Shown here: positions 4,459 to 64,000 of the stretch, piece by piece
How the letters are laid out: every line of letters begins with the position of its first letter
How positions within the stretch are numbered: position 1 is the first letter of the stretch
The notes under the pieces: model-generated
What the model was told of the DNA's origin: nothing
The model's database searches: none
Seen by the model: only the letters and a program-made list of their open reading frames with translations
Source of the DNA: a virus
Strand: one strand, 5' to 3'
Length of the DNA stretch: 64,000 bases
Virus record (IMG/VR): IMGVR_UViG_3300036770_003135
Location: 38,793-102,792 of that record
Program-made: the position numbers and the translations under genes

Positions 4459-4467
4459 TAATTTTTT

Positions 4468-5475: not shown

Positions 5476-5481
5476 ATTTTT

Positions 5482-11600: not shown

Positions 11601-14600
11601 TTTGTTGTTTTTCTGTTTTCGGTAAGATTTCTTTAAGATAACTATCATAACTAGGTTTAATAACATTTCCATTATCAAAATAACCAAAGTTCGGTGCTGA
11701 CCAAAAATTTCTAACAGAACCATTATATACTGAAGTATTACCTGTTATTTCTATTTTTAATCTTGCTGATGTTGATATTTCTGAATTTGTAAAACATTCA
11801 CTCTTACTTTGATTATTACCACCCATAGATGGTAATAATATAAATGTATTCGTATCGGCTGAAATATATAATGACCAACTAGTAACATTTATAGTCCTAT
11901 TTGGTTGGTTATTATCAACTCCTTTTCCATACTTTATATCCGCAAGATTTGTAAGTAAAAAATTTAATTCTTTTTTATCTATCACTTGTTGGATGTCATT
12001 ATTTGTATAAGTATTTGCAATAATATTCTGTCTATCCAAATAGAAATAACCAAAATCATTAATTACTTTAGGATAAAACCCTAAGTTCATTATTGTTCCA
12101 CTTGCTTCATTTTTCTCTAAAACAATCGTATAATCTATTCTTCCTGTAGTAGTTGATGCTGAAAATTTGTATTCTTTTTCTTTATTTGTGGTTAGTGGAT
12201 CGTAATTTTTAACAGAATCAAAATTCTTCCAAACATCATCTAAAATATCAATACCTTCATCAATGAATTTTTGATATCTATACCATATAGAACCTATTTT
12301 TAAAATCCAAGCATATGGTAATTTATGTAAAGCTCCATATTTTTTTAGTGATGCAAATATATAATCAAACTCAGTTTGAGTTGTATTATTATAAGAATTC
12401 AATTTTTCTTTACCAGTAATTAATGGTAGACTATTCAAAAATAAATATGCTGCTTGAGTATATGGATAAGTATTTTTTGTTTTTTGTAATTCAACTCCAT
12501 TTTGGATAGCATTAACAAAATATGGGGTATTAAATATAGATGTTGTTTGTTTAAATGATACTTCACCATTATATGATGGTGAGTAATATATATTACCCTC
12601 AGTTACTAATTGTTTATTAAATTCATCAACTCTGTCGTTATAATAATTTTTAAGGTCTCCATTTGTAGGGATAGTAGTAGGTAAAGTATTTTTAAAAATA
12701 AAATGGGTGATAGGTCTATTAATATTTTGACTATTAATAGATTTAAAATTAGTTAATGTCTTGTATTCAGGACTAAAAGATATTGTATTTCTAGTTCTAT
12801 ACGCTCTATCAAATGATGTCGCATTTCCATTCGCCAAATTTTCTTTAATCCATTTTTCGTTAGTGAAAGGATAGGTATCGGTAAAATCAGGCATATTATT
12901 TTTTGTTGTACCTGTTAACCAATTAATTAAATCATTTCTTGTTTTTTCTGTTAGTGAAACTTTTGGTGTAGTTTCTAAATCACTCATTTCAGCTAATGAT
13001 TTAATTGTGAATGAATTTTTAGCTTGATTATTAATATAACTAGTATTAAAAACACCTCTTATCCAACCTTGCCAACTTGTACTTAAACCATTATTTGATA
13101 TTTCTTTTAAAACACTTTCATAATTTGTAGAATTAATTTGTAATAGTTGTAAATTTTCCAATAAATTTATTGGATTACTATCACTAAAACTTTGATTTAT
13201 ATTTGTAATTTCAACTTCTGAAACGGCATTAACAACGAATTGAGGATTACCCTTATTAATTTTACTATAATAAATAACATATTTTAATCTTTCAAAGATT
13301 TCATAAATAAATTTTACAATCTCTTGATTAAAATACACTGAATTTTTAATTGGGAATTCAATGGCATTGAACGAAACTCTCTTAACATCTTTAGTTTCAT
13401 TATCAACTATTTTAGCTGATGTATCCCTAGAAACTCTTTCAGTTAACGCTTGAATGTATTCTTCAACAAATTGCACTTCAGGCCAAACTGTATAATCTTC
13501 AGCCCCAACATAATCTTTTAATTTTTGGTCACCAGGATATCTTAACTCATAAGTTGTTTTATCTTCCGTTTGATTACTAACTATAAATTGTGGCCAAGGA
13601 TAAATAATTTCTTCATCATTTTTATCCGCGGTTGGTTCTTTGCTACCAAGAATTGCATTAATTCTTTTTGGGTTTTTATTTTGTTTCCAAGCTTTTGTAT
13701 GAACATCATCCATAAGTCTAAGAAAAGCTTCAGTATTAGCAAAAAATACTGCCAAAATATTTCTGATATTTGGTGTAAATCCTATTGGTTGTTGATTTTG
13801 TAATAATAGTGATAGTGATTCTGTAAGGTCATCTTCTATTTCTTGTTTAAATCCATCAACTTGTTTTTTCATTTTAGAAATTAATGATAAAAACCTTATA
13901 TCACCATCAAATATAAAAAAAGTAATTTTTTTTTCAGTCCCATCTTGTTTTCCTGTGATTGGATTTATGGGATAAAAACCTTTATCTTTTATATCGTTTC
14001 TAAACTGATTTATTATAAAATCTTGTAATTCTTGAGCTACTGATTCACTACCACCTCTTCTTTGTTTATAGGTTTGTTCTGTATCAATATCATCCTCAGT
14101 TACATCAAACAGATATAAAAAAGTATTTAAATCTATTTTATTCGTAACTTTTGTTTCAATTATTTGTGTTTTACCTAAAGGAACTTTACTTATTCTTTTA
14201 TATGAACCACTATTTTGTCCAACTGTTTTGTTATCATTTAATCTTCTATTAAATTCAGTAACTAAAGCATTTAATTGACTAGTTACTGAAATTGGATTAT
14301 ATCCTTTTTTTATAGTATATATTTTAGCACCATTATTTAATATATAAAAATTTGTTTTATCAATATATAATTCAAACCAAGACCCAATTTTTTTTGTTGG
14401 GTCTATTGCATTCCAATAAACTTCTTTAGCATATAAATCTAAATCTTTCTGATATATATCAATATCAGTTAGTGGTTCTAAATTAGTTTCAATAAAATTA
14501 TTTAAATCATTTTTAATAAATCTAGATAAAGTTTCATGTAAATCTTTTATTGTAAGTGGTGGAAAATTAGCTGGAATTAAATTTTTACTAATATATTCTT

Positions 14601-39732: not shown

Positions 39733-40176
39733 TTAAAAAGTTGTACCTGTGTAAGGTCCGTTAACACAACAAGGGAAATCTGACACATAACAAGAATTAT
39801 ATTCCAAATCATCAGCAATAAATGATTCTTGGACATTTATATATAATTTTTCTCTAATGGGTAATATCAAAACACCATCATTACTTCTTAACATAAATTG
39901 TCCTTCGTATCTACCAACTCTATTTGTATCTCTATTTTGGAATTGATAATATAGATAATATTCCTTTTCAGCATTTGGGTCAACATTTGTCTTCTCAACA
40001 AATCCTGCAGGTCTTGAAACAATCTTCTCAACACCAGTTTCTGTATCAACCATAGAAAAAAATAAAGCAGATTGTTCTATCAAACTCATAAAGTTGTTGT
40101 AGTCCAATCTACCATTCTTAACCACTTGTAATTTAAGAAGAGGTAACGTTGCGTTCTTCTTTATAAAAAATTCCAT
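39733..40176 (-). CDS. BppU-like (baseplate upper / Ig-like) structural protein
   Basis: FFIKKNATLPLL...YQFQNRDTNRVGRYEGQF pattern. Confidence 0.55.
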   Translation of the reverse strand: MEFFIKKNATLPLLKLQVVKNGRLDYNNFMSLIEQSALFFSMVDTETGVEKIVSRPAGFVEKTNVDPNAEKEYYLYYQFQNRDTNRVGRYEGQFMLRSNDGVLILPIREKLYINVQESFIADDLEYNSCYVSDFPCCVNGPYTGTTF

Positions 40177-40250
40177 CCAGTTTTTATATATAAATACTAT
40201 GAAAAATAAAATAAAAAAAGGATGAAGATTTTATTAACAAGTCAATAAAA

Positions 40251-40769
40251 TTACAAATAGAAAATTTTGAAATTATAATTTTTAATATTTTCTATAATAA
40301 ATCTATCCGCACTTTTTTGTCCACCAAATTTTTTTAACCACAAACCATCATTTGAGAAAGCTGATGTTATTATTTTAATTTTGTAAATTTTATCATTTGG
40401 GTCGAACCTAGGTTTTATTTTTTTAAAATCAATTAAATATTCAATATAATCGCTACCTCTATCAAAACTATCAACTAAAATTATTGGTTCAGTATCATCT
40501 TCATTCTCTAATATATCTAAAATTTCGTAGAATTTATTTCTAATTGAATTTAGAATTATATTAGTATCTACACCAGATTTATATTGATTATTTATCAAAA
40601 GTTTTTCAATAACATCATCAAATTTTTTTTCACCACCCCTCTCAAATCTTTGGTGATATGTATCAAACACCAAAAAGATATTATTATCGTTTTTGATTGT
40701 TTCAAGTTTGTAATTTACAAAATCGTCTGATTCGCAAATTATTTGTTTTAATGTATCTAATAATTTCAT
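40251..40769 (-). CDS. Hypothetical protein with leader MKLLDTLKQIICES
   Basis: 172-aa ORF containing an HQRFER motif. Confidence 0.7.
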   Translation of the reverse strand: MKLLDTLKQIICESDDFVNYKLETIKNDNNIFLVFDTYHQRFERGGEKKFDDVIEKLLINNQYKSGVDTNIILNSIRNKFYEILDILENEDDTEPIILVDSFDRGSDYIEYLIDFKKIKPRFDPNDKIYKIKIITSAFSNDGLWLKKFGGQKSADRFIIENIKNYNFKIFYL

Positions 40770-40771
40770 AT

Positions 40772-40807
40772 ATAAAAAAATGTCCTCAATATAAATATGA
40801 GGACATT
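40772..40807 (-). terminator. Intrinsic terminator whose loop contains the TATTTAT motif
   Basis: AATGTCCTCA-N9-TGAGGACATT followed by a T-run on the minus strand. Confidence 0.75.
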
Positions 40808-40964
40808 AATTATAAGTTTTTTGAACCCCTCACAAGGCGGGTGGTTATCTTACAACCAATCTGGTATATACTCAACCAGCACCTGTTGACACTTATGGTA
40901 GTCCATCCTAATGATGTTTATACACCCCTAACTTTTATTGGTAAGTCATCAACCATTTATTGTC
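40772..40964 (-). ncRNA. Candidate structured non-coding RNA (about 190 nt)
   Basis: GC-enriched, several stems, only tiny ORFs on the minus strand, bounded by a promoter and a terminator. Confidence 0.45.
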
Positions 40965-40967
40965 CTA

Positions 40968-40998
40968 CAAAGATAGTAGTTCTTTATAAATATTCAAA
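40968..40998 (-). promoter_or_regulatory. Bacteroidota-type -33/-7 promoter
   Basis: TTTG-N19-TATCTTTG; TATTTAT also lies within the spacer. Confidence 0.7.
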
Positions 40999-41150
40999 GA
41001 GTTTGGGATTTTTTTTTAAAAAAATAATCACAATCATTTTTATTGGTAAATTTTGTTAATATTCTTTGTGATATCAATCACATTGATTATTATTACTTAT
41101 AGACTTATATTTTATATTTATATTAAATAAATTTTTAAATTAAACCCCCT

Positions 41151-42674
41151 ATGAAAAACATTTTACTAATTCTTATTTTTCTTCCTTCTTTCATTTGGTC
41201 TCAGACTTATCTTCATGGTACAACGGGGATTCAAGGTGAACGTGTAACTCATTGTTTGGTTTCTACTTGTGGTGGAACTTACCTTGACAATGGTGGTTCA
41301 GCAGGTAATTATTCCAATAATATTACTGGTGGACTTTATCGTGTATTTTGTCCATCTACTGTTGGAAGTTGTGTTAGAGCAAGATTTACATCATTTAGAA
41401 CTGAATCTGGTTTTGACTATTTGACCATTGGTAATGGTGCAACACAAAACTCACCCGTATTTACCACAGTCCCAGCTACAGTACCTAATGGTAGAATATC
41501 AGGTGCTCCTGTAGTTCCATTCACTTTCACAGCAAACAACCCAAGTGGTTGTTTAACCTTTAGATTCACCTCGGATGGAAGTATCAATGACATTGGTTGG
41601 AGTGCAACATTATCTTGTGTACCTTGTGCAACGGCTGGTAATGGACCTAATTTAACTGATAATAACGATTGTTCAAGAGCGACCAACATTTGCTCTGACA
41701 TTACATTCAATGCAAATGCAAGAGGTCCTGGTCTTGTAGCTGAAGGATGTACTGGAGCTTCTTGTCCAGCTGGTGGAGAAAATCATTCTAATTGGTATAG
41801 GTTTACTGTACTAACTAGTGGAACACTTACATTTACAATCGACCCACAAACAAACACCGATGACTATGACTTTTCAATATGGGGTCCTAACACAACTTGT
41901 GGAACACTTGGCACTCCAATTAGATGTACTGATTCAGGAAATACTGGAAATACTGGACTTAACACAACTGCGGTCGATAATATTGAAAGTGTTACTGGTG
42001 ATGGTTTCCTATCTCAAATGAATGTCTTAGCTGGTGAAACCTATATTATGGTAGTTGATGAATGGTTATCTAACACTGGTAATGGTTATCAATTATTGTT
42101 TGGTGGAACAGCTAGATTGGATTGTGGATTACTACCAATAGAATTATTATATTTTGGTGCTGAATATCAAAATGAATCAAAGGAAGCTTTAATAACTTGG
42201 GGTGCTAACTCGGATTATGAATCAGAGTTCTTCGTAGTTGAAAAGTCTTTAGATGGTGTAGAATTTGATTCAATTGGAATAACTAGTGCTGGTGGTACTG
42301 GAAGATTTGATTATTCATTTGTTGACCCCAATCCAGAATATAACGGATTCACTTATTATAGATTAAGATGGGAACAACAAGATGTTCAAACTTACTCGGA
42401 TGTAACCGCAATTGCAGTAGATGACCCAACAAATAAAATTATTGTTCAACCAAACCCTTTTAATGATTTTATAAATGTGAAAAGTTTTGGTGATTACTAC
42501 GGAAATTGTCAAGTATCAATTTATGATATGACAGGACAAAAGAAATTGGAACAAACATTACAATTTGGAATCTCCAATAAATTAGAAATAGATACGAAGA
42601 GTTTAACAACTGGATTTTATACCGTGATAATACAAACTGAACAATATACAAAATCGTTTAAGGTAACAAAATAA
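41151..42674 (+). CDS. Secreted CUB-domain protein with a T9SS type-A C-terminal sorting domain
   Basis: Signal peptide ending in SQ; CUB motifs CGGTYLDNGG...FTSFRTESGFDYL...LTFRFTSDGS...GWSA; LPIELLYF Ig domain; PNPFND...IYDMTGQ...LTTGFYTV...FKVTK C-terminal domain. Confidence 0.88.
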   Translation: MKNILLILIFLPSFIWSQTYLHGTTGIQGERVTHCLVSTCGGTYLDNGGSAGNYSNNITGGLYRVFCPSTVGSCVRARFTSFRTESGFDYLTIGNGATQNSPVFTTVPATVPNGRISGAPVVPFTFTANNPSGCLTFRFTSDGSINDIGWSATLSCVPCATAGNGPNLTDNNDCSRATNICSDITFNANARGPGLVAEGCTGASCPAGGENHSNWYRFTVLTSGTLTFTIDPQTNTDDYDFSIWGPNTTCGTLGTPIRCTDSGNTGNTGLNTTAVDNIESVTGDGFLSQMNVLAGETYIMVVDEWLSNTGNGYQLLFGGTARLDCGLLPIELLYFGAEYQNESKEALITWGANSDYESEFFVVEKSLDGVEFDSIGITSAGGTGRFDYSFVDPNPEYNGFTYYRLRWEQQDVQTYSDVTAIAVDDPTNKIIVQPNPFNDFINVKSFGDYYGNCQVSIYDMTGQKKLEQTLQFGISNKLEIDTKSLTTGFYTVIIQTEQYTKSFKVTK

Positions 42675-42698
42675 AAGGATGAGAAATCACCCTTTTTT
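42673..42698. terminator. Bidirectional terminator candidate
   Basis: AAAAGGATGA-GAAA-TCACCCTTTTTT between convergent genes. Confidence 0.55.
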
Positions 42699-45081
42699 AA
42701 TTTTCTTTTCTAAGTTTGCCATCGTAATGGTCAAATCTATTATGTTCTGTTGGTGTAAGTAATAATAATCCTGGTTTAATATTATCTTTAATTGTTTCTT
42801 GATAACAATAACTCATCAAAGTTTGTTCAAAAGGATGTGTCCATCTTGTTTCCAAATAACATTTATAATTCCCCTCCTTATTCATTATTATCGGCCAATT
42901 ACACAAATATATTTCCCCACTTATATATGGAATACCCTTATGAATTTTAATGTGCTTGAACTCCGTTTTTGGTGAGTTGGGGTCTAATCCCATCTGTGGA
43001 AGTTTTGGATTATTAGGCCAATGTTTCTGTCTGAAATCTTGTGGGACATTATACCAAGCCCATTGTGTATTATTATCACCATAAAATTCTGTGAAGTTCA
43101 ATTTGAGGAAATCAAAGTTTTCTTTTTGAATAATCTCCAAACTTTTCCTATATAAATTTTTAACATATCTATTGAATCCATTTTTACAAGTTTCATTCTT
43201 TGGATAGAAGAACATATCATCTTCTAGAAAAAAATACAAGTCTAAGTTGGTATCATTAAAGTGTTCAGCTATAAAAATTCGACCACCCATTATACCAAGG
43301 TTATCTTTTTTAATATGTTCAAATCCATATTGTTCACATAACTCTTTATACCTTGGTGTTGTGGCTAAATCTGTTGAATTATCTAAAAGAAATTTCTTTG
43401 GTTTAGTTATAAAGTCTGAATCATACTCCAACATTGATTGGATTAATGTCTCAAATTGTTTTGGTGAATTAAATGTAATTACATATAATCCCACCTTATC
43501 TATTGATGTATTGTTTTGAACTTGTAAGAATTTTTTTTCTTTCTTGGGTTGTAATCTATTTTCCTTAATATCCTCAAAAAATTTACCCATCAATCCATTT
43601 GGTTCAATATCAAAATAAGTTATTAGATTTGGATAAAGATAAACCATCAAACTGAATATACTTTCTTCAGTTCCCATATATCCCCTATTCAATGTATCTG
43701 ATAACAATTGATAATATATTGAGTTTATTTCAGTTATCACTTCTTTTTTACCACCAAAGAATCCACCTCTTGCAACTTTATTAACTTTTGAATTGGTTAT
43801 TCTATTCATCTCAGAAATAGTGAATCCGTGTATTTCTGTGGTTGTTTCATAAGGGAAACAAACAAAATTAAAATCACCAATATGTTTTGGTAATTTATCC
43901 AATACTTTATCGTGGGTGAAATAACCTGGATGGATTGTATTTGTTAAACCAGCATCAATCCAAAACATATACTCTGAATTGAATTTATCCAAAAGTTTTG
44001 CATCGTGTAGTAAAAACACTTTTGACATAACCAATGGATTATACATTTCAAGTTTTGCTTGGGTTGAATCTTTTAACCAACCAACTTGATTATACCATTC
44101 AGGTTTTTGTCTGATTTCTTGTATCTTTGGATAAAATTCATTATTGGTGAACCAATCCAAGTTTCTTAGAATGAATTGGGTATTGTTATTATTTCTTCTA
44201 TCATTAACGAATTGTTGTAATTCACTATCACCAAAAATAATTAAATTACAATCAACTTCTAATAATTGGGAGAATTTATCCAAGTAGTGTTGATAAGACC
44301 TTGACCAACCCTCTTGAAGTTTATCTCTTCCTATATTCCATAATCCTGTTACTAATGTTATTTTACTATCAAGTGTCTTGTTGTTTGTTTTATTGGGTAT
44401 TTCTTGTTTTGATAAAATATCATAAAACTCTTTTGGAATCGCAACAATATCTTGAGAATTTATTTCATATATGTAATTGTTTTTATTGAATATTTCTTTG
44501 ATGTTGTTTTTTTCATCATCTAATAAATTAATCCACTCAAGTCTAATAACTTTTGGTTTATATTTAGATAAATCAATTTGTTTGAAAATGATATAATCAT
44601 GTCCTTCAGCATCTACCTTAACAATATCAAAATTAGTTAAATTATGCTTTTCAACAAGTGAATCAAAAGTTATACAATTTACATTTACTTTCTCCCCATA
44701 TTTCTCAACTGTTGGTCGGTCAAATTCACTTCCTAAACCATTTTTTGGTGGGTAAACAGCACTCATACCATAAAAACAGTTATGTACCAAACCATTATCA
44801 ATTACTTCCTTGTTAATAGTTATCATTTCTATTTGACCATTGTAATCTGATATTGCAGAATTTTCAAACATAGATTTGTTTGATGTAATATTTTTTTTAA
44901 GTTTGTCAAATAAGTAAGGAATAGGTTCAACATATAAAACTTTATATCCATACATATTAGTATAACCAATCATTTCATCAAATAAAACCCCATCCATTGC
45001 ACCTATGTTCAATGCAACCACCTCGGTTTGATTCTTACCCAAGTAATGTAATGATTTATCAAAAAAATTGTCTATAATCAT
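42697..45081 (-). CDS. Tri-domain protein: FkbM methyltransferase, HtrL/YibB-like domain and GT-A glycosyltransferase
   Basis: NIGAMDG...VEPIP...NSAIS...KVDAEGHD; ITLVTGLWNIGR...FWIDAGL...GGFFGG...EE; LYVITFNSP...LDNS...FLEDDMF. Confidence 0.8.
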   Translation of the reverse strand: MIIDNFFDKSLHYLGKNQTEVVALNIGAMDGVLFDEMIGYTNMYGYKVLYVEPIPYLFDKLKKNITSNKSMFENSAISDYNGQIEMITINKEVIDNGLVHNCFYGMSAVYPPKNGLGSEFDRPTVEKYGEKVNVNCITFDSLVEKHNLTNFDIVKVDAEGHDYIIFKQIDLSKYKPKVIRLEWINLLDDEKNNIKEIFNKNNYIYEINSQDIVAIPKEFYDILSKQEIPNKTNNKTLDSKITLVTGLWNIGRDKLQEGWSRSYQHYLDKFSQLLEVDCNLIIFGDSELQQFVNDRRNNNNTQFILRNLDWFTNNEFYPKIQEIRQKPEWYNQVGWLKDSTQAKLEMYNPLVMSKVFLLHDAKLLDKFNSEYMFWIDAGLTNTIHPGYFTHDKVLDKLPKHIGDFNFVCFPYETTTEIHGFTISEMNRITNSKVNKVARGGFFGGKKEVITEINSIYYQLLSDTLNRGYMGTEESIFSLMVYLYPNLITYFDIEPNGLMGKFFEDIKENRLQPKKEKKFLQVQNNTSIDKVGLYVITFNSPKQFETLIQSMLEYDSDFITKPKKFLLDNSTDLATTPRYKELCEQYGFEHIKKDNLGIMGGRIFIAEHFNDTNLDLYFFLEDDMFFYPKNETCKNGFNRYVKNLYRKSLEIIQKENFDFLKLNFTEFYGDNNTQWAWYNVPQDFRQKHWPNNPKLPQMGLDPNSPKTEFKHIKIHKGIPYISGEIYLCNWPIIMNKEGNYKCYLETRWTHPFEQTLMSYCYQETIKDNIKPGLLLLTPTEHNRFDHYDGKLRKEN

Positions 45082-45929
45082 ATTAAAAATAAATTGTAAA
45101 AATATTTGATTTTATCTTCTTTTTTGTGGTGTTCCCTCTCATACCAATCGTCAAATTCTAATAAAGTAATCTTATCTTTGTTTTCGACATACAAGTTGGA
45201 TAATATTAATTCTTCCATAAATAACTGATTTTCATTGTTCAATAACTCCACTAATCTCCCTTCAAAATTTTGTTTAAACTCATTGAATATATTTGGTTTT
45301 CCACCAAAGAAACCACCAATTACATGTGTGGAATTGTCATAGTTTGTATAGTAGTTGGATGGTAATGTTTGTGACCAAAAAAACTGACCTGTATTATTCT
45401 TCCCAACCAACAAAAATTTTTCATTAGTAAGATTATTGATATAGTCTAAAAAATTAGGGACAAATAAATTTATACCAAAAAAACCTTCATACGATGAATC
45501 TATTCTATAATCTTCAGGAAACAAACCACCGTGAGATAAACCAGCATCGAACCAATAGACTCGGTCATAACTTTCTTTATTAGGTAATAAATCATACCAA
45601 AAGAATTTGTTATATTGAATCTCAAAACACCTGTCAATAGTTTTCATCACTTCGATATTTTTCAAATTTCTAATTTGCTCAAAGTATTTTGTTTGAGTTA
45701 ATTCGAAAACAATAAATTCTAATTTGTCTTTTGAAATATTATTTTTAACATAAAAAAAGTTTGTTAAGTCATCTAACTCGTTTTGAGGTACAAAACAAAT
45801 ATATTTATTGGCATTGAGTTCCAATATTTTTTTCAGTGAAAGTCTGTAATGTCTTTCTCTTGATGGTCTACCACCAAATTCAGTCCCCCACAAATATGAA
45901 TATATTGAGGTGTAAATTAAAGTTTTCAT
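45078..45929 (-). CDS. HtrL/YibB-like putative glycosyltransferase
   Basis: YNKFFW...YWFDAGL...IGGFFGG...MEELILS; paralogous to the middle domain of the next gene. Confidence 0.7.
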   Translation of the reverse strand: MKTLIYTSIYSYLWGTEFGGRPSRERHYRLSLKKILELNANKYICFVPQNELDDLTNFFYVKNNISKDKLEFIVFELTQTKYFEQIRNLKNIEVMKTIDRCFEIQYNKFFWYDLLPNKESYDRVYWFDAGLSHGGLFPEDYRIDSSYEGFFGINLFVPNFLDYINNLTNEKFLLVGKNNTGQFFWSQTLPSNYYTNYDNSTHVIGGFFGGKPNIFNEFKQNFEGRLVELLNNENQLFMEELILSNLYVENKDKITLLEFDDWYEREHHKKEDKIKYFYNLFLI

Positions 45930-47176
45930 AAATTTCCAGTTATTCTATCACACCATCCTTTTGATTTTGAGTGTGGCCACACAACCCAATAAGATGGTTT
46001 TGTTATGGTATTAAATTCCCTCCATATTTTGCAATAACCATCAGGGTCTTGCATAACTCTATTTATTTCATTGATGTCAGCATCTTGTCTAAACATCGTT
46101 TCATCTTTATTATCGTGAAATGCGACAACCCAAAAATCATAATCCTTTTCAGGTACTTGACCAAAATGAACATCAATACAATGTTTGAATACACTAGCAA
46201 AACTATTTAAGTATTCTTCCTCAGTTTCAAAGTTATATGGATTGGGAGGATAGTTTTTATCAGTTGTGTATTTCTGTACTCCTCTCCTATTAAACTTAAT
46301 CCCAGCATATTTCTCATAATCCTCTAATGTCCTTTCAGTTCCAAATCCGTACTTACCAAATTCATTAGGATTAAATACTTCACCATCCATTGAGAATAAT
46401 CTTCTATTCCTTGAATGTGATTTGTCATTTTTCTTAAACCATTCTTTGTCAACATCCCATTGTTTTGTTCTTCCCTTCCTTGTGTACTCATGCCAAATAA
46501 TAACTCGGTGTGGATGAAATAAATCATATCCGTGGGTGAATGCTCTAACACCAACAGATATCTCTTCTCCGTGGAAATAATACTCAGGGTCGTGTTGAAC
46601 TTCATTACTAAATTCACCTAATGTAAAACAGAAATGTGCTGAGTAAAATCTTGCGGGAATTGGTCCGCTTAATTCCCTCCAATTTGGAATAACTTCAGGT
46701 AAAAAGAATACAGCACCTTCAGGAATAAATCTATCAAAGACCATCCTCCAAGGTTCTGTAACTCTACCTTGTGGGTCATTGTCAGGGTCAAATGATGAAA
46801 CATATCCAGTTAACAAAGGTTTTGGGTATCCTTTTGATTGGAGGTCTTTTAACATATTAATTAAAGTTTCATCCCAATCTTGTTCAAATCTCATATGGGA
46901 ATCAATTTGTAATGTATATGTTTCTCCTGAATATAATTGTTGAACTTGGTTTCTTGCCCAACAAACACCTGGTGAATCAATATCTTTTACATCAATAATT
47001 CTAAATCTTTTATCCTTTCTATAATGGTCAAGATTAAATTCATCATTTTCATTATATTGATTACAAATACCAATTCTAAGTTTTTTAGGGTATTTTGCTT
47101 TGGATATTAAATCTTCTAATGTTGGATTAAGTTGGGGGTCTCTAAATGATGCTATTTGTACAAATATTGTTGACAT
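45926..47176 (-). CDS. GT60-family polypeptide N-acetylglucosaminyltransferase-like protein
   Basis: IFVQIASFRDPQL, GVCWAR, LQIDSHMRF (DxH), FHGEEI, FTHGYDLFHP...WHEY. Confidence 0.85.
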   Translation of the reverse strand: MSTIFVQIASFRDPQLNPTLEDLISKAKYPKKLRIGICNQYNENDEFNLDHYRKDKRFRIIDVKDIDSPGVCWARNQVQQLYSGETYTLQIDSHMRFEQDWDETLINMLKDLQSKGYPKPLLTGYVSSFDPDNDPQGRVTEPWRMVFDRFIPEGAVFFLPEVIPNWRELSGPIPARFYSAHFCFTLGEFSNEVQHDPEYYFHGEEISVGVRAFTHGYDLFHPHRVIIWHEYTRKGRTKQWDVDKEWFKKNDKSHSRNRRLFSMDGEVFNPNEFGKYGFGTERTLEDYEKYAGIKFNRRGVQKYTTDKNYPPNPYNFETEEEYLNSFASVFKHCIDVHFGQVPEKDYDFWVVAFHDNKDETMFRQDADINEINRVMQDPDGYCKIWREFNTITKPSYWVVWPHSKSKGWCDRITGNL

Positions 47177-47235
47177 TCTTATTTTTAATTAAAAAATAAA
47201 AAAATCAAAATAAAAGGATATATTAAATATAAATT

Positions 47236-47769
47236 TTATGGACTACTTGGTGAAGGAGTAATTGTTGGTGTTACTGATGGTGTTGGTGTAATACTTACAC
47301 AACTATTACTAACACAATTATCTCCAATATAAATGTCACATTCAGTTAATGCAATTGGATTAGTTCCACAATAATATAATGTTGTTCCAGAATTGATTGG
47401 CAATACACTTGTTATAGTTCCATCACATTGGGTATAATAAAACGTTCCAATTGTTGTTCCCGTATTTGTAACTTGAATACATCTACAAGTTCCAGTTGGA
47501 GTAGGTGTTGGAGTTGGTGTATAACTTGGAGTTGGTGTGGGTGTTGGAGGACAAGAATATGGATAAAATATTTCACATCCATTACTATCCATAACTTTAA
47601 CTATAACACTATCAGCAACATCTAATGGTGGTGGCACATCAAAAGTAAAAGTTGGTGGAATAGTAGTTGAACCCATTATTAAATAACAATAAACTAATGT
47701 GGTATCACAAACTGTGATTGAATATGGGGGTGTTCCTGTTACACCTGTTATACTTATTTGATGTGGCAT
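47236..47769 (-). CDS. Cys-rich protein with Pro/Thr mucin-like tracts
   Basis: PPTPTPTPSYTPTPTPTPT and TPTPSVTPTITPSPSSP. Confidence 0.8.
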   Translation of the reverse strand: MPHQISITGVTGTPPYSITVCDTTLVYCYLIMGSTTIPPTFTFDVPPPLDVADSVIVKVMDSNGCEIFYPYSCPPTPTPTPSYTPTPTPTPTGTCRCIQVTNTGTTIGTFYYTQCDGTITSVLPINSGTTLYYCGTNPIALTECDIYIGDNCVSNSCVSITPTPSVTPTITPSPSSP

Positions 47770-49666: not shown

Positions 49667-50311
49667 TTATATATATCTGTTTTTATTTGTATTATAATTT
49701 TGTAAGATTTCTGTTTGTGTTAATGCTCTACTATAAAATCTAAATAGTGATAAATTTATAGGGGCATAAAAAATATTATTAAAATTAGCTAAAGTTAAAA
49801 AACCTCCAGGTAATGTAGTACCTACCAATGGCGTAGAATTTTTAAGTTCACCATTTACATATATTAGTCTATCAGTTGATGTAAACTGACACACTATATG
49901 ATAGTATGTATTTAGTGTTGGAATAACACCTGAACTCATAATATTACCATTCATACTAAAAACAATTGTTTGGTCACTCCAAATTCCACTCCAATAATCA
50001 CCACTTTGAATTTTACCAACAACAACAAATGTAGATGAAATATTCCTATAACTCACCCAATACTCAAACGTCATAGTAGTTGAGTCAGTTTCTAAAGTAG
50101 TTAATACAAAATCATTAATACCATCAAATACAATATTTCCACTATTTAATGTACTAAATGTTGGTCCATTTGTTAAAGTTCCAATATATCCACTTTTACT
50201 TAAATCAGTCCAAGTAGTCCCAGTTGTAGGATATGACTTTATATTAGCAGCATCTAAATAAAGTACTAAATTATCTGTTATTACATTACCACCACCTTCT
50301 GTTGTACTCAT
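49667..50311 (-). CDS. LamG/concanavalin A-like lectin domain protein, paralog 1
   Basis: LVLYLDAAN...W.DLS...FDG.ND...YVNG...RALT..EILQNY. Confidence 0.85.
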   Translation of the reverse strand: MSTTEGGGNVITDNLVLYLDAANIKSYPTTGTTWTDLSKSGYIGTLTNGPTFSTLNSGNIVFDGINDFVLTTLETDSTTMTFEYWVSYRNISSTFVVVGKIQSGDYWSGIWSDQTIVFSMNGNIMSSGVIPTLNTYYHIVCQFTSTDRLIYVNGELKNSTPLVGTTLPGGFLTLANFNNIFYAPINLSLFRFYSRALTQTEILQNYNTNKNRYI

Positions 50312-51033
50312 AATCCGTATCTTGATTTTGTTGCATTATAGTTTTGAAGAATTTCTTGGTCTGAAAGTAATCTAAAATACATTTGAGTCATACTTATTCT
50401 TCCATTAAAAACTAAATTTGGTGTTACATTATCCGCTTCTTGATAACTCCCAATTCTAAAATTGTTTGTTGATAAAAAATCTAAACCATTCCATTGAGAG
50501 ATTGTTGCGGTGGTTGTTAAAGTTTGGTCTACTCCATTTACGTATATTTTTATTGCTGATGCCCTATCAACTAAAAAAGTAATCATATACCATACCCCAT
50601 TTGTTAATGATAAAGTGGTATATGGATTTACATCAGCACCACCATTACCTTGGATAAAAAAACCAACTCTACTTAAAGTATCTACTAAAATTGCATATCT
50701 ATAATTTTGTACATCAAATATTGTTTTTGAAAGAGTGGAAGATAAAGAAGCTGAAGAATTAATATAAATCCATTGATTTATAGTACAACTACTAGTTCTT
50801 AAATTAAGAATATTACCAAAACTTGAAGAGTCATTCGTACCATCAAATACAATACTACCCCCATCATTAGAATTAAATATTGGTCCATTAATTAAAGTCC
50901 CACTATAACGATTATAACTAAGATCTCTCCATATTGTTCCTGTACCTGAATAAGAATCTTTTTTTGCGGCATCAACAAATAAAGCTAATCCATTAGTTAC
51001 AATATTTCCATAATAAGTAATTCTAGCACTCAT
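50308..51033 (-). CDS. LamG/concanavalin A-like lectin domain protein, paralog 2
   Basis: Same motif set; ATGA overlap with the neighbouring gene. Confidence 0.85.
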   Translation of the reverse strand: MSARITYYGNIVTNGLALFVDAAKKDSYSGTGTIWRDLSYNRYSGTLINGPIFNSNDGGSIVFDGTNDSSSFGNILNLRTSSCTINQWIYINSSASLSSTLSKTIFDVQNYRYAILVDTLSRVGFFIQGNGGADVNPYTTLSLTNGVWYMITFLVDRASAIKIYVNGVDQTLTTTATISQWNGLDFLSTNNFRIGSYQEADNVTPNLVFNGRISMTQMYFRLLSDQEILQNYNATKSRYGL

Positions 51034-51764
51034 AATAAACTTAATCTCGATTTAATTGCATTATAGTTCTGAAGAACTTCTGTGGCTGTTAACGCTCTAT
51101 TATAAAACATAACATTAAACATATTACCTTTAAACCATCCATTATATCCCGTATTAATTCTAGCCCCAACTGTAAAATCAGATGTTAAAGGATTAGAGTT
51201 TAAAGTAATACCGGCCTTTTCATCTACCATAACTCCATTAACATAAAGTCTAGCATTTGTAGAATTTACTGTTGCTGTAAAAACATTAAAAGTATTTAAT
51301 ATTGTTCTTGAATTTATTACCGATGTTGTTCCACCAAGACCATTAAAAAACTCACAATACACACTTTCAATAACACCATTTCTCCCAAGATAAAATGCTA
51401 ATTTTCTATACCCATTTCCCAACTGGTATCTATCTATTGCAACTAATGGTGCCCATGAAAAACCACCACTTGGATTACTAAAACCAGTACAAAAACAAGC
51501 AAAACTCATCGTTACTGTTGTTGCAGTTCTAAATAATTGTTCCCCAGCTGTTCCGTAATTTACATAATCATCAATACCATCAAATACAATTGAACCCAAT
51601 CTTGAACTATTAAATGTCGGTCCGTTTGTTAAAGCCCCATTGTATTGATTAATTGTTAAATCATTCCAACTTAATCCTGTTGTTGGATATGAACGAGTAT
51701 TTCCAGCATCTAAATACAATACTAAACCATTGGTAACCACACGAGGACTAAAATTAAATGCCAT
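51030..51764 (-). CDS. LamG/concanavalin A-like lectin domain protein, paralog 3
   Basis: Same motif set; ATGA overlap. Confidence 0.85.
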   Translation of the reverse strand: MAFNFSPRVVTNGLVLYLDAGNTRSYPTTGLSWNDLTINQYNGALTNGPTFNSSRLGSIVFDGIDDYVNYGTAGEQLFRTATTVTMSFACFCTGFSNPSGGFSWAPLVAIDRYQLGNGYRKLAFYLGRNGVIESVYCEFFNGLGGTTSVINSRTILNTFNVFTATVNSTNARLYVNGVMVDEKAGITLNSNPLTSDFTVGARINTGYNGWFKGNMFNVMFYNRALTATEVLQNYNAIKSRLSLL

Positions 51765-51765
51765 A

Positions 51766-53097
51766 TTAAATACTTCTAATTATTGTTTTAACTATCCATC
51801 CCGTAGTTGTTGCGGAACTTCTCAAAATTGCATTACCACCTGAAAGTGTCACATTGAATGATACACCTGTTGTTGTGCCAACATCAAGTGTACTTGTATC
51901 AGTGTATTGAACATTACTACCGACCCAAATACTTGTAAAAGTACCAGCTCTCGCATTTACATTATCCGTAGTTGCTAAAGTATAATCAACAAACACTCCA
52001 GTATATGCACTAGTTGGAATTGAATAAATTTGATTTTGACCTATGGTTAATGATGTTCTTTTAGTCGTAAATAAAGCAGGAGATAAATAACTACCAAGTA
52101 CAATTGTGTTATCTGAAAAAACTTCTAATATCGGTAAACCTGAAATATCATTAACACTAAATAATGAACCAATTAAACTATCAGTTACTGAAAACAATTC
52201 TCCACTTGAACCTTGAACTGTAAATAATGGAGAGGTTGAACCTGAACCAATTATAGTAAGTATATTTTGTGCTGAACCTGAAATCAAACCCGACGTACCT
52301 GTAAAACCTCTTAAAGTTGTATTACCAGTAACAGATAAATTACCATTGATAGTTAATCCAGTTACAGTATTAAATAAAGTTGAAAATGTTCCTCCAGTAT
52401 TATTTGTAAATGTAAATGTATTATTATTATAACTTGCCCCAGTTACAAAAACATCTGTTGACGATGATGTACCACCTGTAGTAAATCCTGTAACACTAAA
52501 TGTTCCACCAGTATTATTAGTGAATGTTGCAGTACCATTTGAGTTATTATAAGTTCCACCTGTTACAAATACATCAAATCCAGAAGTTCCACCTGTGGTA
52601 AAACCACTCACGTTAAATGTTCCACCAGTATTATTAGTGAATGTCGCTGTACCATTAGAATATGTACCACCTGTTACAAATATATCAGTTGGTAAATTTT
52701 GATATGTTGTTGCAGAAATAGTATTAGCCGTTAAACCATTAGTGAAATTTGTCTCCCCACTTACAGTTCCACCTGTAAAAGTTCCACCACCACTTGTAAA
52801 TCCTGATATATTAAAAGACCCTCCACTTGTATTTGAGAATGTAACTATACCAGTATTACTATCATAAGTTCCACCAGTAACAAAATAATCACTAAATCCT
52901 GATACACTAATACTACCATTAATAGCATTACTCAATGTGAGTGTTTCAGCATTTTTATCAAACGTTCCACCAGTTAATGGGAGTATATCAGTGAATTGAG
53001 GATAAACTTTCCAATAAGTTCCAGTATAAATCCAATTTAATCCATTGTAACTATATATTTGATTGACTGTTGCACCAGTTGGAAAATTAATTGTCAT
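51766..53097 (-). CDS. Gly/Thr-rich tail fibre protein
   Basis: N-terminal INFP...W.Y.G..W module; repeated DVFVTGGTY...FTNNTGGTF. Confidence 0.75.
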   Translation of the reverse strand: MTINFPTGATVNQIYSYNGLNWIYTGTYWKVYPQFTDILPLTGGTFDKNAETLTLSNAINGSISVSGFSDYFVTGGTYDSNTGIVTFSNTSGGSFNISGFTSGGGTFTGGTVSGETNFTNGLTANTISATTYQNLPTDIFVTGGTYSNGTATFTNNTGGTFNVSGFTTGGTSGFDVFVTGGTYNNSNGTATFTNNTGGTFSVTGFTTGGTSSSTDVFVTGASYNNNTFTFTNNTGGTFSTLFNTVTGLTINGNLSVTGNTTLRGFTGTSGLISGSAQNILTIIGSGSTSPLFTVQGSSGELFSVTDSLIGSLFSVNDISGLPILEVFSDNTIVLGSYLSPALFTTKRTSLTIGQNQIYSIPTSAYTGVFVDYTLATTDNVNARAGTFTSIWVGSNVQYTDTSTLDVGTTTGVSFNVTLSGGNAILRSSATTTGWIVKTIIRSI

Positions 53098-53124
53098 TTT
53101 AAAATTATTTAATTATAAATATTA

Positions 53125-53898
53125 TTATAACCCATATTTAGATTTTGTGGCATTAAAATTTGTGGATATCTCAATTGGGGATAATCCTTTTGTATAAAAG
53201 TAACATGCCCCAATTTTACCATCTAAATATTGAATCAGTCCAAGACCAGCTAATGGTGCGGGCATATATCCTAATGTCAATGGATTAGATTCGTTATAAC
53301 TATCTATACCATGAAAATTACTTGTATATTGAGTATCATTAATATAAACTTTAGTACTACCTACGGTATTTGTTATTTGTGAAATGAATGTAAACAAATA
53401 CCAAGTATTCAATGAAATACCTGATGTTGATACTGATGTCTTTTGTACACTTGTACCATTTGTTGCAACAACAGTTTGATTATTGATATTAATACCACCA
53501 AAATAACCATCAAATGCGAAACCACTTGACAATTTACTAAATAGTATTGAACGATTAGAACCAATTGGACTACTATCAAATTTAACCCATATTTGAATTG
53601 TTTTTTGAATGGTTGTACTTAAACTCAAGTTAATATTATGAGGAATACTTATAGTGTCATTAATACCATCAAAATCAAAAATGCCACCATCTGTTGGTGA
53701 CCAAGTTGCTCCAAGTATTGTTCCATTATTACCATTAATTGTTTCATCCAACCATTGGCCACTACCTAAATAGTTGGTAGCATCCAATTTCATAAATAAG
53801 TTATCAGTTACAATGTTTGAAGGTTGTACTGATGGGGTATCAAAATTAATTAAAATACCATTAAAATCAATTAGTGTATTATTAAAAGAAACTAACAT
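53125..53898 (-). CDS. LamG/concanavalin A-like lectin domain protein, paralog 4
   Basis: LDATNY...FDFDG.ND...NTWY...KVYIN...NFNATKSKYGL. Confidence 0.85.
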   Translation of the reverse strand: MLVSFNNTLIDFNGILINFDTPSVQPSNIVTDNLFMKLDATNYLGSGQWLDETINGNNGTILGATWSPTDGGIFDFDGINDTISIPHNINLSLSTTIQKTIQIWVKFDSSPIGSNRSILFSKLSSGFAFDGYFGGININNQTVVATNGTSVQKTSVSTSGISLNTWYLFTFISQITNTVGSTKVYINDTQYTSNFHGIDSYNESNPLTLGYMPAPLAGLGLIQYLDGKIGACYFYTKGLSPIEISTNFNATKSKYGL

Positions 53899-62183: not shown

Positions 62184-63110
62184 TTAATTACATAACCATA
62201 CATCAAAACCATCAGTGATTTGGAAGAAAGTTCTGTAAATGTTATATGTTATGCTAAACCCATTAGCGTCTACTATAATTATCGCACCTATATTATTAAA
62301 TGGTATATTATTACCAGTACATCCAACATCACTATTTCTAAATTCAGTTGGTTGTGTTAAACCAGTTGGTATTAAAATATAACCATAAGCAAAACCACTT
62401 GGAACACTCCAATAAGTATTTGTTGGATTACTTGTATAACCACTAATTAATAAACTTGTATCTCCACTTGTTATAGTTCCCCCACTAAATTTACCCCAAT
62501 AAATCTTTGGTGACTCAGGAGCTCCAGGTGATGGTGTTGGAGTTGGTGTACTTGTTTTAGTTGGAGTTGGTGTACTTGTTTTTGTTGGTGTCACCGTTGG
62601 AGTTATTGTTGGTGTTACTGTTGGTGTTACAGTATTCGTTGGTGTTATAGTCGGAGTCGGAGTTGGTGTTTTAGTAGCACCTGGTGTTTTAGATGGTGTA
62701 ACACAAGGATTTCTCGAAGGAGTAATCGTTGGTGTTACTGATATAGTTGGTGTTGGTGTCGCAGTATTAGTTGGTGTTGGCGTTGGTGTTGGAACTTTAC
62801 ATTGGTCAAAACTTGGAGTTGGTGTAACTGTTGGTGTTGGCGTAGGTGTTTGAGTTCTAGTTGGTGTTATGGTTGGTGTTGGAGTAGAGGTTGGAGCTGG
62901 GACATTAAGTATCAATGGACAATCCCCATTCTCAACTAAAATAGTATAAGTACCATAAACTTCATATGGGGGTACTAATGTACCAGGTTCAAACAAATAA
63001 GGCAATACTTGAATACCCAAATTAATTGGTATTCCACTACCTTGTGGTGTAAAAACAATACTAGCACTTTCTCCAGAATAATTAATACTTTGAATTATTA
63101 TTGTTGTCAT
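62184..63110 (-). CDS. Mucin-like Pro/Thr-rich structural protein
   Basis: About 125-aa TPTPT tract between two small globular domains. Confidence 0.8.
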   Translation of the reverse strand: MTTIIIQSINYSGESASIVFTPQGSGIPINLGIQVLPYLFEPGTLVPPYEVYGTYTILVENGDCPLILNVPAPTSTPTPTITPTRTQTPTPTPTVTPTPSFDQCKVPTPTPTPTNTATPTPTISVTPTITPSRNPCVTPSKTPGATKTPTPTPTITPTNTVTPTVTPTITPTVTPTKTSTPTPTKTSTPTPTPSPGAPESPKIYWGKFSGGTITSGDTSLLISGYTSNPTNTYWSVPSGFAYGYILIPTGLTQPTEFRNSDVGCTGNNIPFNNIGAIIIVDANGFSITYNIYRTFFQITDGFDVWLCN

Positions 63111-63155
63111 ATTTATTAAAACTCACATTTCAAATAAATACTAACAATAACAAAA

Positions 63156-64000
63156 TTAGACACAATTACTTTTACTTGGTGTTGGAGTTGGAGTTGGTGT
63201 TCTAGTCGGCATTATTGGTCTTCCAGACCTTGATGGTGTAACAGTCATTGTCGGAGTCACCGTATTCGTTGGAGTTGGTGACGGTGTTGGTTTTGGTGTT
63301 CTAGTCGGAGTATTAGTAGGTGTTGGTGTAGGTAACAATTCTGTAATTGTATACGTTAAATCATTTACCTCACAAACAATTGTTGAGCAATCAGGGCAAT
63401 CAGGATTAAACATATTAAATTTATTTTTTAATAAATTAAAATTGTGTTTAACTTCAGGAGCTGTTAATGGTTCAACATACATTCTAAATTGAGATATACC
63501 ACCCTCAAATGTACCCGCAAAATTTTGTTCAATTAATATATTTGTATTTAATCCACTTAAAGTAGTACCACTCAAAACATTATTTGGGAAACATTCTGGG
63601 TCTTGAATGTAAAGACCATTTGGTTGTGTCATTGATGAGAACGTTAAATTCTCTCTTAATCCTTGAGTACCACCACCCCAAGAAATATTAAATGGAACGC
63701 CAACTTGTTTTTCTTTATCGGTATTTAAGGCTCTGGGTATTATCTCTTCAAAATTTTCAATAGTATAAAATATTTTACCATTGATATAAATTTTTAATCT
63801 ACCCAATCTATTTTTACCATCAATTAACCATTTTTCATTTAAGTTAATTAATTCAACTTGTAATGCAGATTCTCCTTGTGTATATGGTGGTTTTATTAAA
63901 GAAACAGTATTATTCGCCAAACTTTCCAAATAAAGTTTTTTGGTAATGTCACCCAAACCACCCTTCCAAAATAAATCACATTCGTCAAAATAATTATACC
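63156..64000 (-). CDS. Structural protein with a LamG-like segment and a Pro/Thr C-terminal tail; 5' end lies outside the window
   Basis: The frame stays open to the window edge; LKIYINGK...FEGGISQFRMY.EPLT.PEV.HNF; PTPTPT tail. Confidence 0.8.
   Translation of the reverse strand, partial: YNYFDECDLFWKGGLGDITKKLYLESLANNTVSLIKPPYTQGESALQVELINLNEKWLIDGKNRLGRLKIYINGKIFYTIENFEEIIPRALNTDKEKQVGVPFNISWGGGTQGLRENLTFSSMTQPNGLYIQDPECFPNNVLSGTTLSGLNTNILIEQNFAGTFEGGISQFRMYVEPLTAPEVKHNFNLLKNKFNMFNPDCPDCSTIVCEVNDLTYTITELLPTPTPTNTPTRTPKPTPSPTPTNTVTPTMTVTPSRSGRPIMPTRTPTPTPTPSKSNCV

Follow-up and report, generated by a model that had tools for sequence, protein, structure and literature searches.

What would a phage glycosylate with an enzyme whose nearest structural relatives act on Thr/Pro-rich mucin peptides? 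We address this question for an island of three overlapping genes in a stretch of 64,000 nucleotides of viral DNA (hereafter the window), which spans bases 38793-102792 of the 102,792-base IMG/VR virus record IMGVR_UViG_3300036770_003135. The island encodes a GT60-family glycosyltransferase, an HtrL-like putative glycosyltransferase and a three-part protein that combines a methyltransferase domain with two domains of the GT-A glycosyltransferase fold. It directly follows a gene for a protein with Pro/Thr (PT) tracts. Our preferred reading, to which we assign a probability of about 0.55, is that the island would O-glycosylate, in the cytoplasm, the Pro/Thr-rich appendage proteins of the phage itself.

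All genes of the island lie on the minus strand, as does the gene of the 177-amino acid (aa) PT-tract protein (47236-47769), a candidate acceptor. Its stop (47236) is separated by 59 nt from the start (47176) of the gene of the 416-aa GT60 enzyme (45926-47176), which overlaps by an ATGA (45929-45926) with the gene of the 283-aa HtrL-like protein (45078-45929); a second ATGA (45081-45078) joins the latter to the gene of the 794-aa three-part protein (42697-45081). Read directly in the sequence, these positions confirm exactly the arrangement given in a first-pass annotation of the window. That annotation had also placed the island at the end of a fibre-type gene block, in agreement with the Thr/Ser-rich paralogous fibre-type genes upstream (49667-53898, minus strand), which match phrog_8510 'virion structural protein' with E-values of 1e-15 to 1e-22.

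The GT60 enzyme scored 249.1 bits against PF11397 (GlcNAc, CAZy GT60; cut-off 21), with profile positions 1-45 and 95-351 covered, and 564 bits against phrog_24687 in PHROGs. In an alignment of 46 sequences with 35-77% identity (alignment A2), D92 and H94 of a DSH motif as well as E204, E205, R211 and H229 are invariant; D92, H94 and H229 are the probable metal ligands, and at the level of sequence the DSH motif implies that the enzyme would be metal-dependent. No meaningful match to a PDB chain was obtained when the three enzymes were searched by sequence. When the AF2 model of the GT60 enzyme (pLDDT 95.7, pTM 0.88) was compared with the PDB by Foldseek, the first 30 or so matches listed were almost exclusively polypeptide N-acetylgalactosaminyl (ppGalNAc) transferases, with E-values of about 1e-11 to 1e-9. 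An exhaustive structural scan (VIA) returned mouse GalNAc-T1 (Z 21.2, root-mean-square deviation (rmsd) 3.7, 280 aligned residues) and Toxoplasma GalNAc-T3 (Z 19.9), at least 2.5 Z above generic GT-A enzymes, the best of which reached Z 17.4. Because ppGalNAc-transferases top both searches, the relationship of GT60 to the GT27 family that had been proposed at first pass holds at the fold level. Residues ~312-416 form an extra beta-rich domain in the model. The enzyme is soluble, as it contains no hydrophobic or membrane segment. To our knowledge, all characterised GT60 enzymes modify polypeptides.

A prolyl hydroxylase elsewhere in the genome, which the first-pass annotation had suggested looking for, was not found: PF13640 had no match in the window record or in four complete relatives, whereas control genomes did match. 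Because the four complete relatives gave no match, a hydroxyproline route of the Skp1/Gnt1 type is unlikely. Relatives of the GT60 enzyme are abundant, with 4,685 related representative clusters in a protein library and more than 7,000 metagenomic relatives at an E-value of 1e-5 or better. Among these clusters are giant proteins in which GT60 matches as many as four times (for example P0123 with 2,461 aa, P0124, P0125, P0131 and P0134).

The three-part protein divides into an FkbM-type methyltransferase domain (residues 1-236; 44374-45081), an HtrL_YibB domain (residues 237 to ~505; 43567-44373) and a C-terminal GT-A domain (residues ~520-794; 42700-43524). The first of these matches PF05050 with 63.9 bits (cut-off 22.7) and TIGR01444 with 52.1 bits (cut-off 37.7). 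Among related loci, this N-terminal fusion occurs only in the window phage and in locus L066, and relatives conserve only residues 237-794, which they encode as a separate protein of ~555 aa. The HtrL_YibB domain matches PF09612 over residues 240-489 with 59.5 bits (cut-off 24.1). Because its 65 bits against TIGR02192 are far under the equivalog cut-off of 264.9, we regard it as a family member and not as a YibB equivalent. Its WIDAGL (with D376) and RGGFFGG motifs are invariant (alignment A1). The AF2 model of residues 237-794 (pLDDT 88.7) contains two GT-A domains. For the HtrL domain (model residues 1-267), VIA found BoGT6a (Z 12.3), UGGT (Z 12.0) and PBCV-1 A64R (Z 11.2), and the modelled domain would thus be a GT-A fold most like retaining enzymes of the GT6/GT24 type. 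The C-terminal domain has no Pfam match; in VIA it is closest to B4GALNT1 (Z 15.7), POMGnT1 (Z 14.8) and GnT-I (Z 14.7), it reaches TM 0.62-0.63 with Atlas GT2 clusters, and it carries an E620-D621-D622 motif in which E620 and D622 are invariant (alignment A1). The best matches over both domains are the tandem GT-A enzymes LH3, Mimivirus R699, the chondroitin polymerase K4CP, LARGE1, COLGALT1 and heparosan synthase, with Z 11.5-13.1 and Foldseek E-values of 1e-9 to 4e-12. We refer to this conserved two-domain part as the HtrL+GT-A enzyme.

The 283-aa protein had no match in Pfam, even at an E-value of 5, in PHROGs or in NCBIfam. In a pairwise BLASTP comparison it matched the HtrL domain with an E-value of 4e-4 and had WxDAGL (WFDAGL) and GGFFGGK motifs in common with it, and it reached a structural TM of 0.72-0.74 with HtrL_YibB clusters of the Atlas. 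On this weaker evidence, the protein may be HtrL-like. The inventory of one GT60, two HtrL-type, one GT-A and one FkbM domain that had been drawn up for the island is thus supported by Pfam and fold searches, more weakly so for the 283-aa protein.

To see which of these parts belong together, we turn to related loci. A scan of viral contigs returned at least 167 stretches encoding relatives, and we examined 80 loci with a GT60 identity of 68-98%. These have a fixed gene order: a fibre-type block with PT proteins, GT60, a variable middle, HtrL+GT-A, a homologue of a 147-aa protein (39733-40176, minus strand) and PolB. The middle comprises 0-8 genes, and its 137 non-redundant proteins fall into 45 clusters. 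Among 20 representatives, Pfam matches were found to GT25, PLOD-GT, GT10, GT34, nucleotide-diphospho-sugar transferase, RXYLT1 and GT2, to FkbM and CmcI-type sugar methyltransferases and to a fusion of HAD with a sugar-nucleotidyl transferase; no Pfam family of a flippase, polymerase or lipid-carrier enzyme occurred among them. A hydrophobic segment, which is weak, is present in one of the 137 cassette proteins and in none of the core enzymes.

The borders of the middle could be located in the window itself. The nearest relatives share DNA homology of 94-96% with the window up to the GT60 stop (45924-45930) and again from the start of the HtrL domain (44361-44365), with unrelated DNA between, so that the breaks delimit a variable slot at 44366-45924. 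A contig from a lake metagenome represents the empty site, with position 44358 joined to 45926 by two letters, in agreement with loci in which GT60 directly adjoins HtrL+GT-A; the contigs came from four metagenomes and are patchy, and we used only two bridging joints. GT60 and the two-domain HtrL+GT-A enzyme are a fixed frame around a swappable cassette. Because this frame is conserved while the middle is swapped or emptied, the 283-aa gene, which is absent or replaced in the nearest relatives, and the FkbM domain are cassette content and not core. Of the pathway of five domains proposed at first pass, the families are present, but the 283-aa and FkbM parts, to which extension and capping had been ascribed, are not conserved. 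Integron-like cassettes with hairpins have been noted in other parts of this genome, but for this slot such a mechanism was not favoured, as the enzyme genes overlap by ATGA and have no intergenic hairpins.

The genes that accompany this frame encode proteins with PT tracts. In the 177-aa protein, a PT linker connects a conserved 73-aa N-domain containing Cys to a second Cys-rich module, which is followed by a PT/PS tail; the tracts of the protein are PPTPTPTPS, TPTPTPTPT and a C-terminal TPSPSSP. Homologues of the protein keep the N-domain but differ in their C-terminal modules and in the length of their TPT/TQT stalks, which ranges from 0 to over 1,500 aa, and the largest relatives measure 1,526 aa (L047) and 1,792 aa (L058). 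Both (L047:3021-7601 and L058:3253-8631) consist almost entirely of TPT/TQT/TNT repeats (more than 100 units) with small Cys-rich modules between them and can be described as phage stalks of mucin scale. On the other side of the frame, the 147-aa protein is by homology the bare N-domain, ending in FPCC, of a second modular family, the relatives of which continue into poly-Thr/PT stalks and BspA-like repeats. Neither the 177-aa nor the 147-aa protein matched a family in Pfam, PHROGs or NCBIfam. Two further candidates lie at the end of the window, where long PT-tract proteins had been reported at 62184-64000 and the tracts are as described. The first (62184-63110, minus strand, 308 aa; 16% P and 22% T) has a PT stalk of ~130 aa between small N- and C-terminal domains, and its homologues are located upstream of GT60 in many loci. 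The second (63156-63998, minus strand) is PT-tailed, has a weak phrog_8510 match and is open at the window end; in relatives, the co-directional fibre-type block begins with its homologue.

Several modules recur among these families. The 47236, 39733 and 62184 families shuffle the same C-terminal modules. BspA/DUF285-like repeats (FNQ(D/P)I..W(D/N)VS.VT.M..MF) follow PT stalks at L005:17360-21055, L008:16674-19331 and L022:5019-9035. A Cys-bounded motif pair, (I/L)TE(D/N)G...(I/L)xTE(D/N)G, follows PT linkers at L090:9302-10312, which is the C-terminus of ORF325 of the Xanthomonas phage XacN1, and at L023:7633-8328. It is also present in the L053 and L067 homologues of the 147-aa protein, and thus in Xanthomonas and freshwater phages alike.

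The association of PT tracts with the frame was quantified in two ways. A pattern coding for TPTPTP occurs 17 times in the 102.8-kb record and 20-34 times in the complete relatives, compared with 0 for a reversed-pattern control in either case, and in the complete relatives one cluster always adjoins GT60. In addition, we counted neighbours in the 44 distinct loci for which both flanks were available, within a window of three genes on each side. An open reading frame (ORF) with a PT tract was present near the frame in 37 of these loci (upstream in 31, downstream in 17), whereas none of the 183 frame and cassette enzymes of the same loci contained such a tract. The co-occurrence of GT60 with PT-tract genes, a check that the first-pass annotation had put forward, was thus found in related phages, and it extends to the XacN1 phage and to bacterial genomes (odds ratio 22.8), as described below.

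Related enzymes are present in phages of other lineages. The Xanthomonas phages XacN1 and Xoo-sp13 and the Stenotrophomonas phages CM1 and RAS14 encode GT60 at 45-51% identity, and in XacN1 and Xoo-sp13 the order is GT60, a carbamoyltransferase, an HtrL-like gene, one more gene and HtrL+GT-A (41% identity). XacN1 contains 29 TPTPTP matches, one set of which lies in the C-terminus of ORF325, a protein of 3,313 aa that is encoded after the baseplate wedge gene and ~1 kb from the glycosyltransferase block. XacN1 virions yielded at least two Schiff-positive bands, which were credited to ORF328 and ORF334 (PMC5852040), and ORF334 is the GT60 homologue. In distant viral lineages GT60 is again found in tail modules, with a PT protein directly upstream in L092 and L098; in L093-L097, where GT60 is part of a structural module, few PT tracts lie in its vicinity. 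L091, L092 and L098 (~10001-12300) contain tandem GT60 paralogues with 58-61% and 31-32% identity to the window enzyme and no BLAST-detectable HtrL+GT-A gene. A search for related loci from the library representative P0229 returned no viral locus, and one from P0143 returned only little informative loci at 25% identity.

The association is also present in bacteria. At least 567 bacterial genome stretches encode GT60 relatives, and we counted 73 bacterial or metagenome-assembled genome (MAG) loci with a called GT60 ORF, which are not all independent: no fewer than five come from related Burkholderiales, and a small number are probably contigs of phages. Of the 512 genes located at most four positions from GT60, 21 were PT-tract ORFs, compared with 1 of the 533 more distant genes of these loci (odds ratio 22.8, p = 3e-6), and an HtrL+GT-A homologue was located within three genes of GT60 at 20 of the 73 loci. 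In Ralstonia sp. 25C (L147:4881-20559), GT60 is part of a type VI secretion system (T6SS) cluster with the order TssF, TssG, TssA, a fimbrial-like gene, GT60, VgrG, TagF and TssM, and this VgrG ends in ~65 PT repeats. The sampled loci contain 11 further VgrG homologues, ten of which carry a C-terminal (PT)n or (P-S/T-E)n tail, including (PSEE)n, and other Burkholderiales also carry GT60 within a T6SS (L145, L149, L152, L153, L157, L166, L172, L175, L178 and L180). The T6SS is a second setting in which a Pro/Thr tail of a cytoplasmically assembled, phage-tail-like structure lies beside GT60. A glycosylation of T6SS VgrG spikes, undescribed so far, is possible.

From these observations we infer a scheme of acceptors, donor sugars, order of steps and glycoproteins in the virion. 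Late in infection, the soluble GT60 enzyme would transfer the first sugar, by family probably an alpha-linked N-acetylhexosamine, from a uridine diphosphate (UDP)-sugar to Thr (or Ser) of the Pro/Thr stalks; as candidate acceptors we regard the 47236 and 39733 families together with the 62184 and 63156 proteins. Strain-specific cassette enzymes, here the HtrL-like transferase and the FkbM methyltransferase domain, would then elaborate the glycan, and the conserved two-domain HtrL+GT-A enzyme would add two further linkages before the glycoproteins assemble into virions. Linker stiffening, protection against proteases or a role as bait for a glycan-foraging host are speculation as to what such glycans might do.

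Several points weigh against this scheme. The PT proteins are putative virion members, as judged from their position and weak PHROG matches. Because PT linkers are common in phage fibres, the co-location may partly reflect residence in a fibre module. The related phage loci do not count as independent, some of the MAG contigs are probably phage, and other PT tracts of the complete relatives lie 70-130 kb from GT60. HtrL-family genes are best known from lipopolysaccharide (LPS) and lipooligosaccharide (LOS) core clusters.

These points bear on three other explanations. The island might glycosylate proteins at sites off the PT tracts, such as capsid or tail-tube subunits, other fibre sites or host proteins, in which case the adjacency of PT genes would reflect only the position of the fibre module. 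We consider this unlikely, although mycobacteriophage glycans, according to the summary in PMC12619734, are attached at the C-termini of capsid and tail-tube subunits. The periodic acid-Schiff-positive bands of XacN1 could belong to proteins other than those with PT tracts, and L093-L097 have few PT tracts near a GT60 gene within the structural module. PT-tract genes are nevertheless enriched beside GT60 in bacterial genomes that have no fibre module, including the T6SS loci with VgrG-(PT)n, and the nearest structural relatives of the enzyme act on Thr/Pro-rich mucin peptides, both of which argue against this explanation. Alternatively, the enzymes could act at the cytoplasmic face on host envelope glycoconjugates (LPS/LOS core or capsule) and thereby block a receptor or exclude rival phages. 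HtrL/YibB and WlaTC genes are located in LPS and LOS core clusters, the cassettes include matches to GT25 'LPS biosynthesis' and GT2, and a swappable cassette between conserved flanks resembles O-antigen loci. However, a membrane protein, flippase, polymerase or priming phosphoglycosyltransferase was not seen among the cassette proteins, the single weak hydrophobic segment in 137 of them aside, and we know of no lipid or glycan acceptor of GT60. The same frame is moreover present in phages of hosts from different phyla with different envelopes, and the island lies inside a fibre operon, which makes this explanation decidedly unlikely.

The sugars might instead be added to the phage DNA, as in the T-even, RB69 and 5mYOX-associated GT-A systems. 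Phage GT-A enzymes that glycosylate 5-hydroxymethylcytosine do exist, often near replication genes (bioRxiv 10.1101/2023.12.21.572611); PolB is encoded two to three genes downstream of the island and also nearby in XacN1, and all four complete relatives have ThyA homologues (PF00303). The genes of known DNA sugar pathways are clustered with that of a ThyA-like hydroxymethylase or with those of a C5 methyltransferase and a TET-like enzyme (PMC13326640; bioRxiv 10.1101/2023.12.21.572611). Here, by contrast, the ThyA homologues are ~95-165 kb away from the island, a C5 methyltransferase (PF00145) is present only in the window record, and TET/JBP (PF12851) had no match in five genomes, an absence that is weakly tested because the control genomes gave no match either. 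Up to eight cassette enzymes together with a polypeptide-type initiator do not fit a nucleobase acceptor, and distant lineages carry GT60 in tail modules; modification of DNA is thus highly improbable. We retain the cytoplasmic glycosylation of Pro/Thr-rich appendage proteins as the preferred reading.

The record from which the window was taken has a CheckV completeness of 35%, and the window has a GC content of ~29-30%. Because the complete relatives measure 290-322 kb, the record is a fragment of a jumbo phage. The source is probably an uncultured jumbo phage of roughly 290 kb with a Bacteroidota host. The host is inferred because a type IX secretion system (T9SS) sorting-domain gene is present and because the nearest GT60 matches in the genome collection (61-68% identity) come from MAG contigs of Saprospiraceae, Lewinellaceae and Bacteroidia; some of these contigs probably represent phage DNA that was binned. 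PMC12619734 describes moraphages as freshwater phages of Bacteroidota hosts with genomes of 200-307 kb and four core glycosyltransferase families, to which it assigns no targets. It is plausible that the window phage is a candidate 'moraphage'.

The T9SS-domain gene (41151-42674, plus strand) matches PF18962 with 42 bits and encodes a signal-peptide-like N-terminus. Together with a 172-aa ORF it occupies a second variable slot (40177-42718), the genes of which are absent from most relatives and which is empty in a metagenome contig that joins 40176 to 42719. Homologues of the T9SS-domain protein (27-66% identity) were limited to the closest relatives and two MAG contigs. A terminator-like hairpin (42696-42673, minus strand), a consensus match only, follows immediately after the stop of the last enzyme gene and is common to the convergent plus-strand gene. 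Promoter scans did not exceed expectation: sigma-70 promoters gave 59 matches versus 62 in shuffles, and the Bacteroidota-type motif TTTG...TAnnTTTG was not enriched, with 10 matches versus 5.7 in shuffles and with 7 of 100 shuffles reaching 10. Elsewhere in the window, three tandem paralogous ORFs of 335 aa each are located at 3451-6489 (minus strand), the middle one of which (~4531-5466) matches the C5 DNA methylase family PF00145 with 191 bits; such a gene was found in none of the four complete relatives. A 236-aa protein (7678-8388, minus strand) contains four repeats of PPPPP(S)G(T)D(I/M)GA, after which comes an acidic region resembling a coiled coil, and its Pro-rich tract differs in kind from the PT stalks.

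Glycosylated phage particles have been demonstrated in few cases only, and the module described here is present in at least 167 viral contigs. If the preferred reading is true, abundant freshwater jumbo phages carry mucin-like glycoprotein stalks with a glycan that varies between near-identical strains, which would bear on host recognition, on resistance to proteases and grazers and on the stickiness of the particles. The system would then be a bacterial-cytoplasm counterpart of eukaryotic mucin-type initiation and would offer a compact set of soluble enzymes for the glyco-engineering of Thr/Pro linkers. The link to the T6SS would then suggest an unreported modification of VgrG spikes in culturable Burkholderiales. 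A more far-reaching idea, which we regard as quite unlikely, is that the fixed pair of GT60 and a LARGE1-like tandem enzyme with a retaining and an inverting GT-A domain builds a repeating heteropolysaccharide on the mucin-like Pro/Thr stalks. The recombining cassette would set a strain-specific linker or cap, and the island would be a kind of 'serotype locus' for the phage particle. Bacteria would use this initiator on the (PT)n tails of T6SS VgrG spikes, and cytoplasmic mucin-type glycosylation would be an undescribed feature common to contractile injection machines.

A full-text literature search for GT60 in combination with phage returned no paper describing such a system. Its parts can be compared with known systems one by one. 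The phage enzyme has PF11397, the GT-A fold and the DxH motif in common with the protist GT60 enzymes, namely the Trypanosoma cruzi mucin pp-alphaGlcNAcT and Dictyostelium Gnt1/Gnt2, whose acceptors are Thr-rich mucin-type tracts or the hydroxyproline of Skp1. It differs from them in having no signal anchor, in its location in the bacterial cytoplasm and in the extra C-terminal beta domain, and no prolyl hydroxylase partner was found. GT27 enzymes (GalNAc-T1, -T2 and -T4 and Toxoplasma GalNAc-T3) are the nearest solved structures over ~270-280 residues and also have the DxH metal motif, but they belong to another CAZy family and are only 12-16% identical in sequence; a ricin-type lectin domain was not seen in the phage enzyme, the C-terminal domain of which was compared only as part of the whole model. 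The HtrL+GT-A enzyme aligns over both domains with the tandem enzymes LARGE1, K4CP, PmHS2, LH3/PLOD3 and Mimivirus R699 and, like LARGE1, pairs a retaining-like with an inverting-like GT-A domain, although the domains are oriented differently (rmsd 17-25 Å over both domains) and identity is ~10%; a polymerising activity is pure conjecture.

Among viruses, a close likeness is to ORF334-ORF330 of XacN1, which comprise GT60 (49-51%), a variable middle and HtrL+GT-A (41%) beside a giant PT-linker protein. The genes of the middle are different there (a carbamoyltransferase and two others), the host is a member of the Pseudomonadota, and the published description uses only the label 'glycosyltransferase family protein' and draws no link to PT tracts (PMC5852040). 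Mycobacteriophages also encode transferases that modify their own structural proteins in the cytoplasm; their acceptors are the C-termini of capsid and tail-tube subunits, and neither GT60, mucin-like stalks nor a swappable cassette is reported for them (Freeman et al. 2023, as cited in PMC12619734). PBCV-1, with its capsid glycosyltransferase A64R, and Mimivirus have eukaryotic hosts and another initiating chemistry, but these viruses, too, encode soluble GT-A enzymes and sugar methyltransferases, with which they modify capsid or fibril proteins without recourse to the pathways of the host. We conclude that the island is most likely a case of phage virion-protein glycosylation, a kind of system that is already known.

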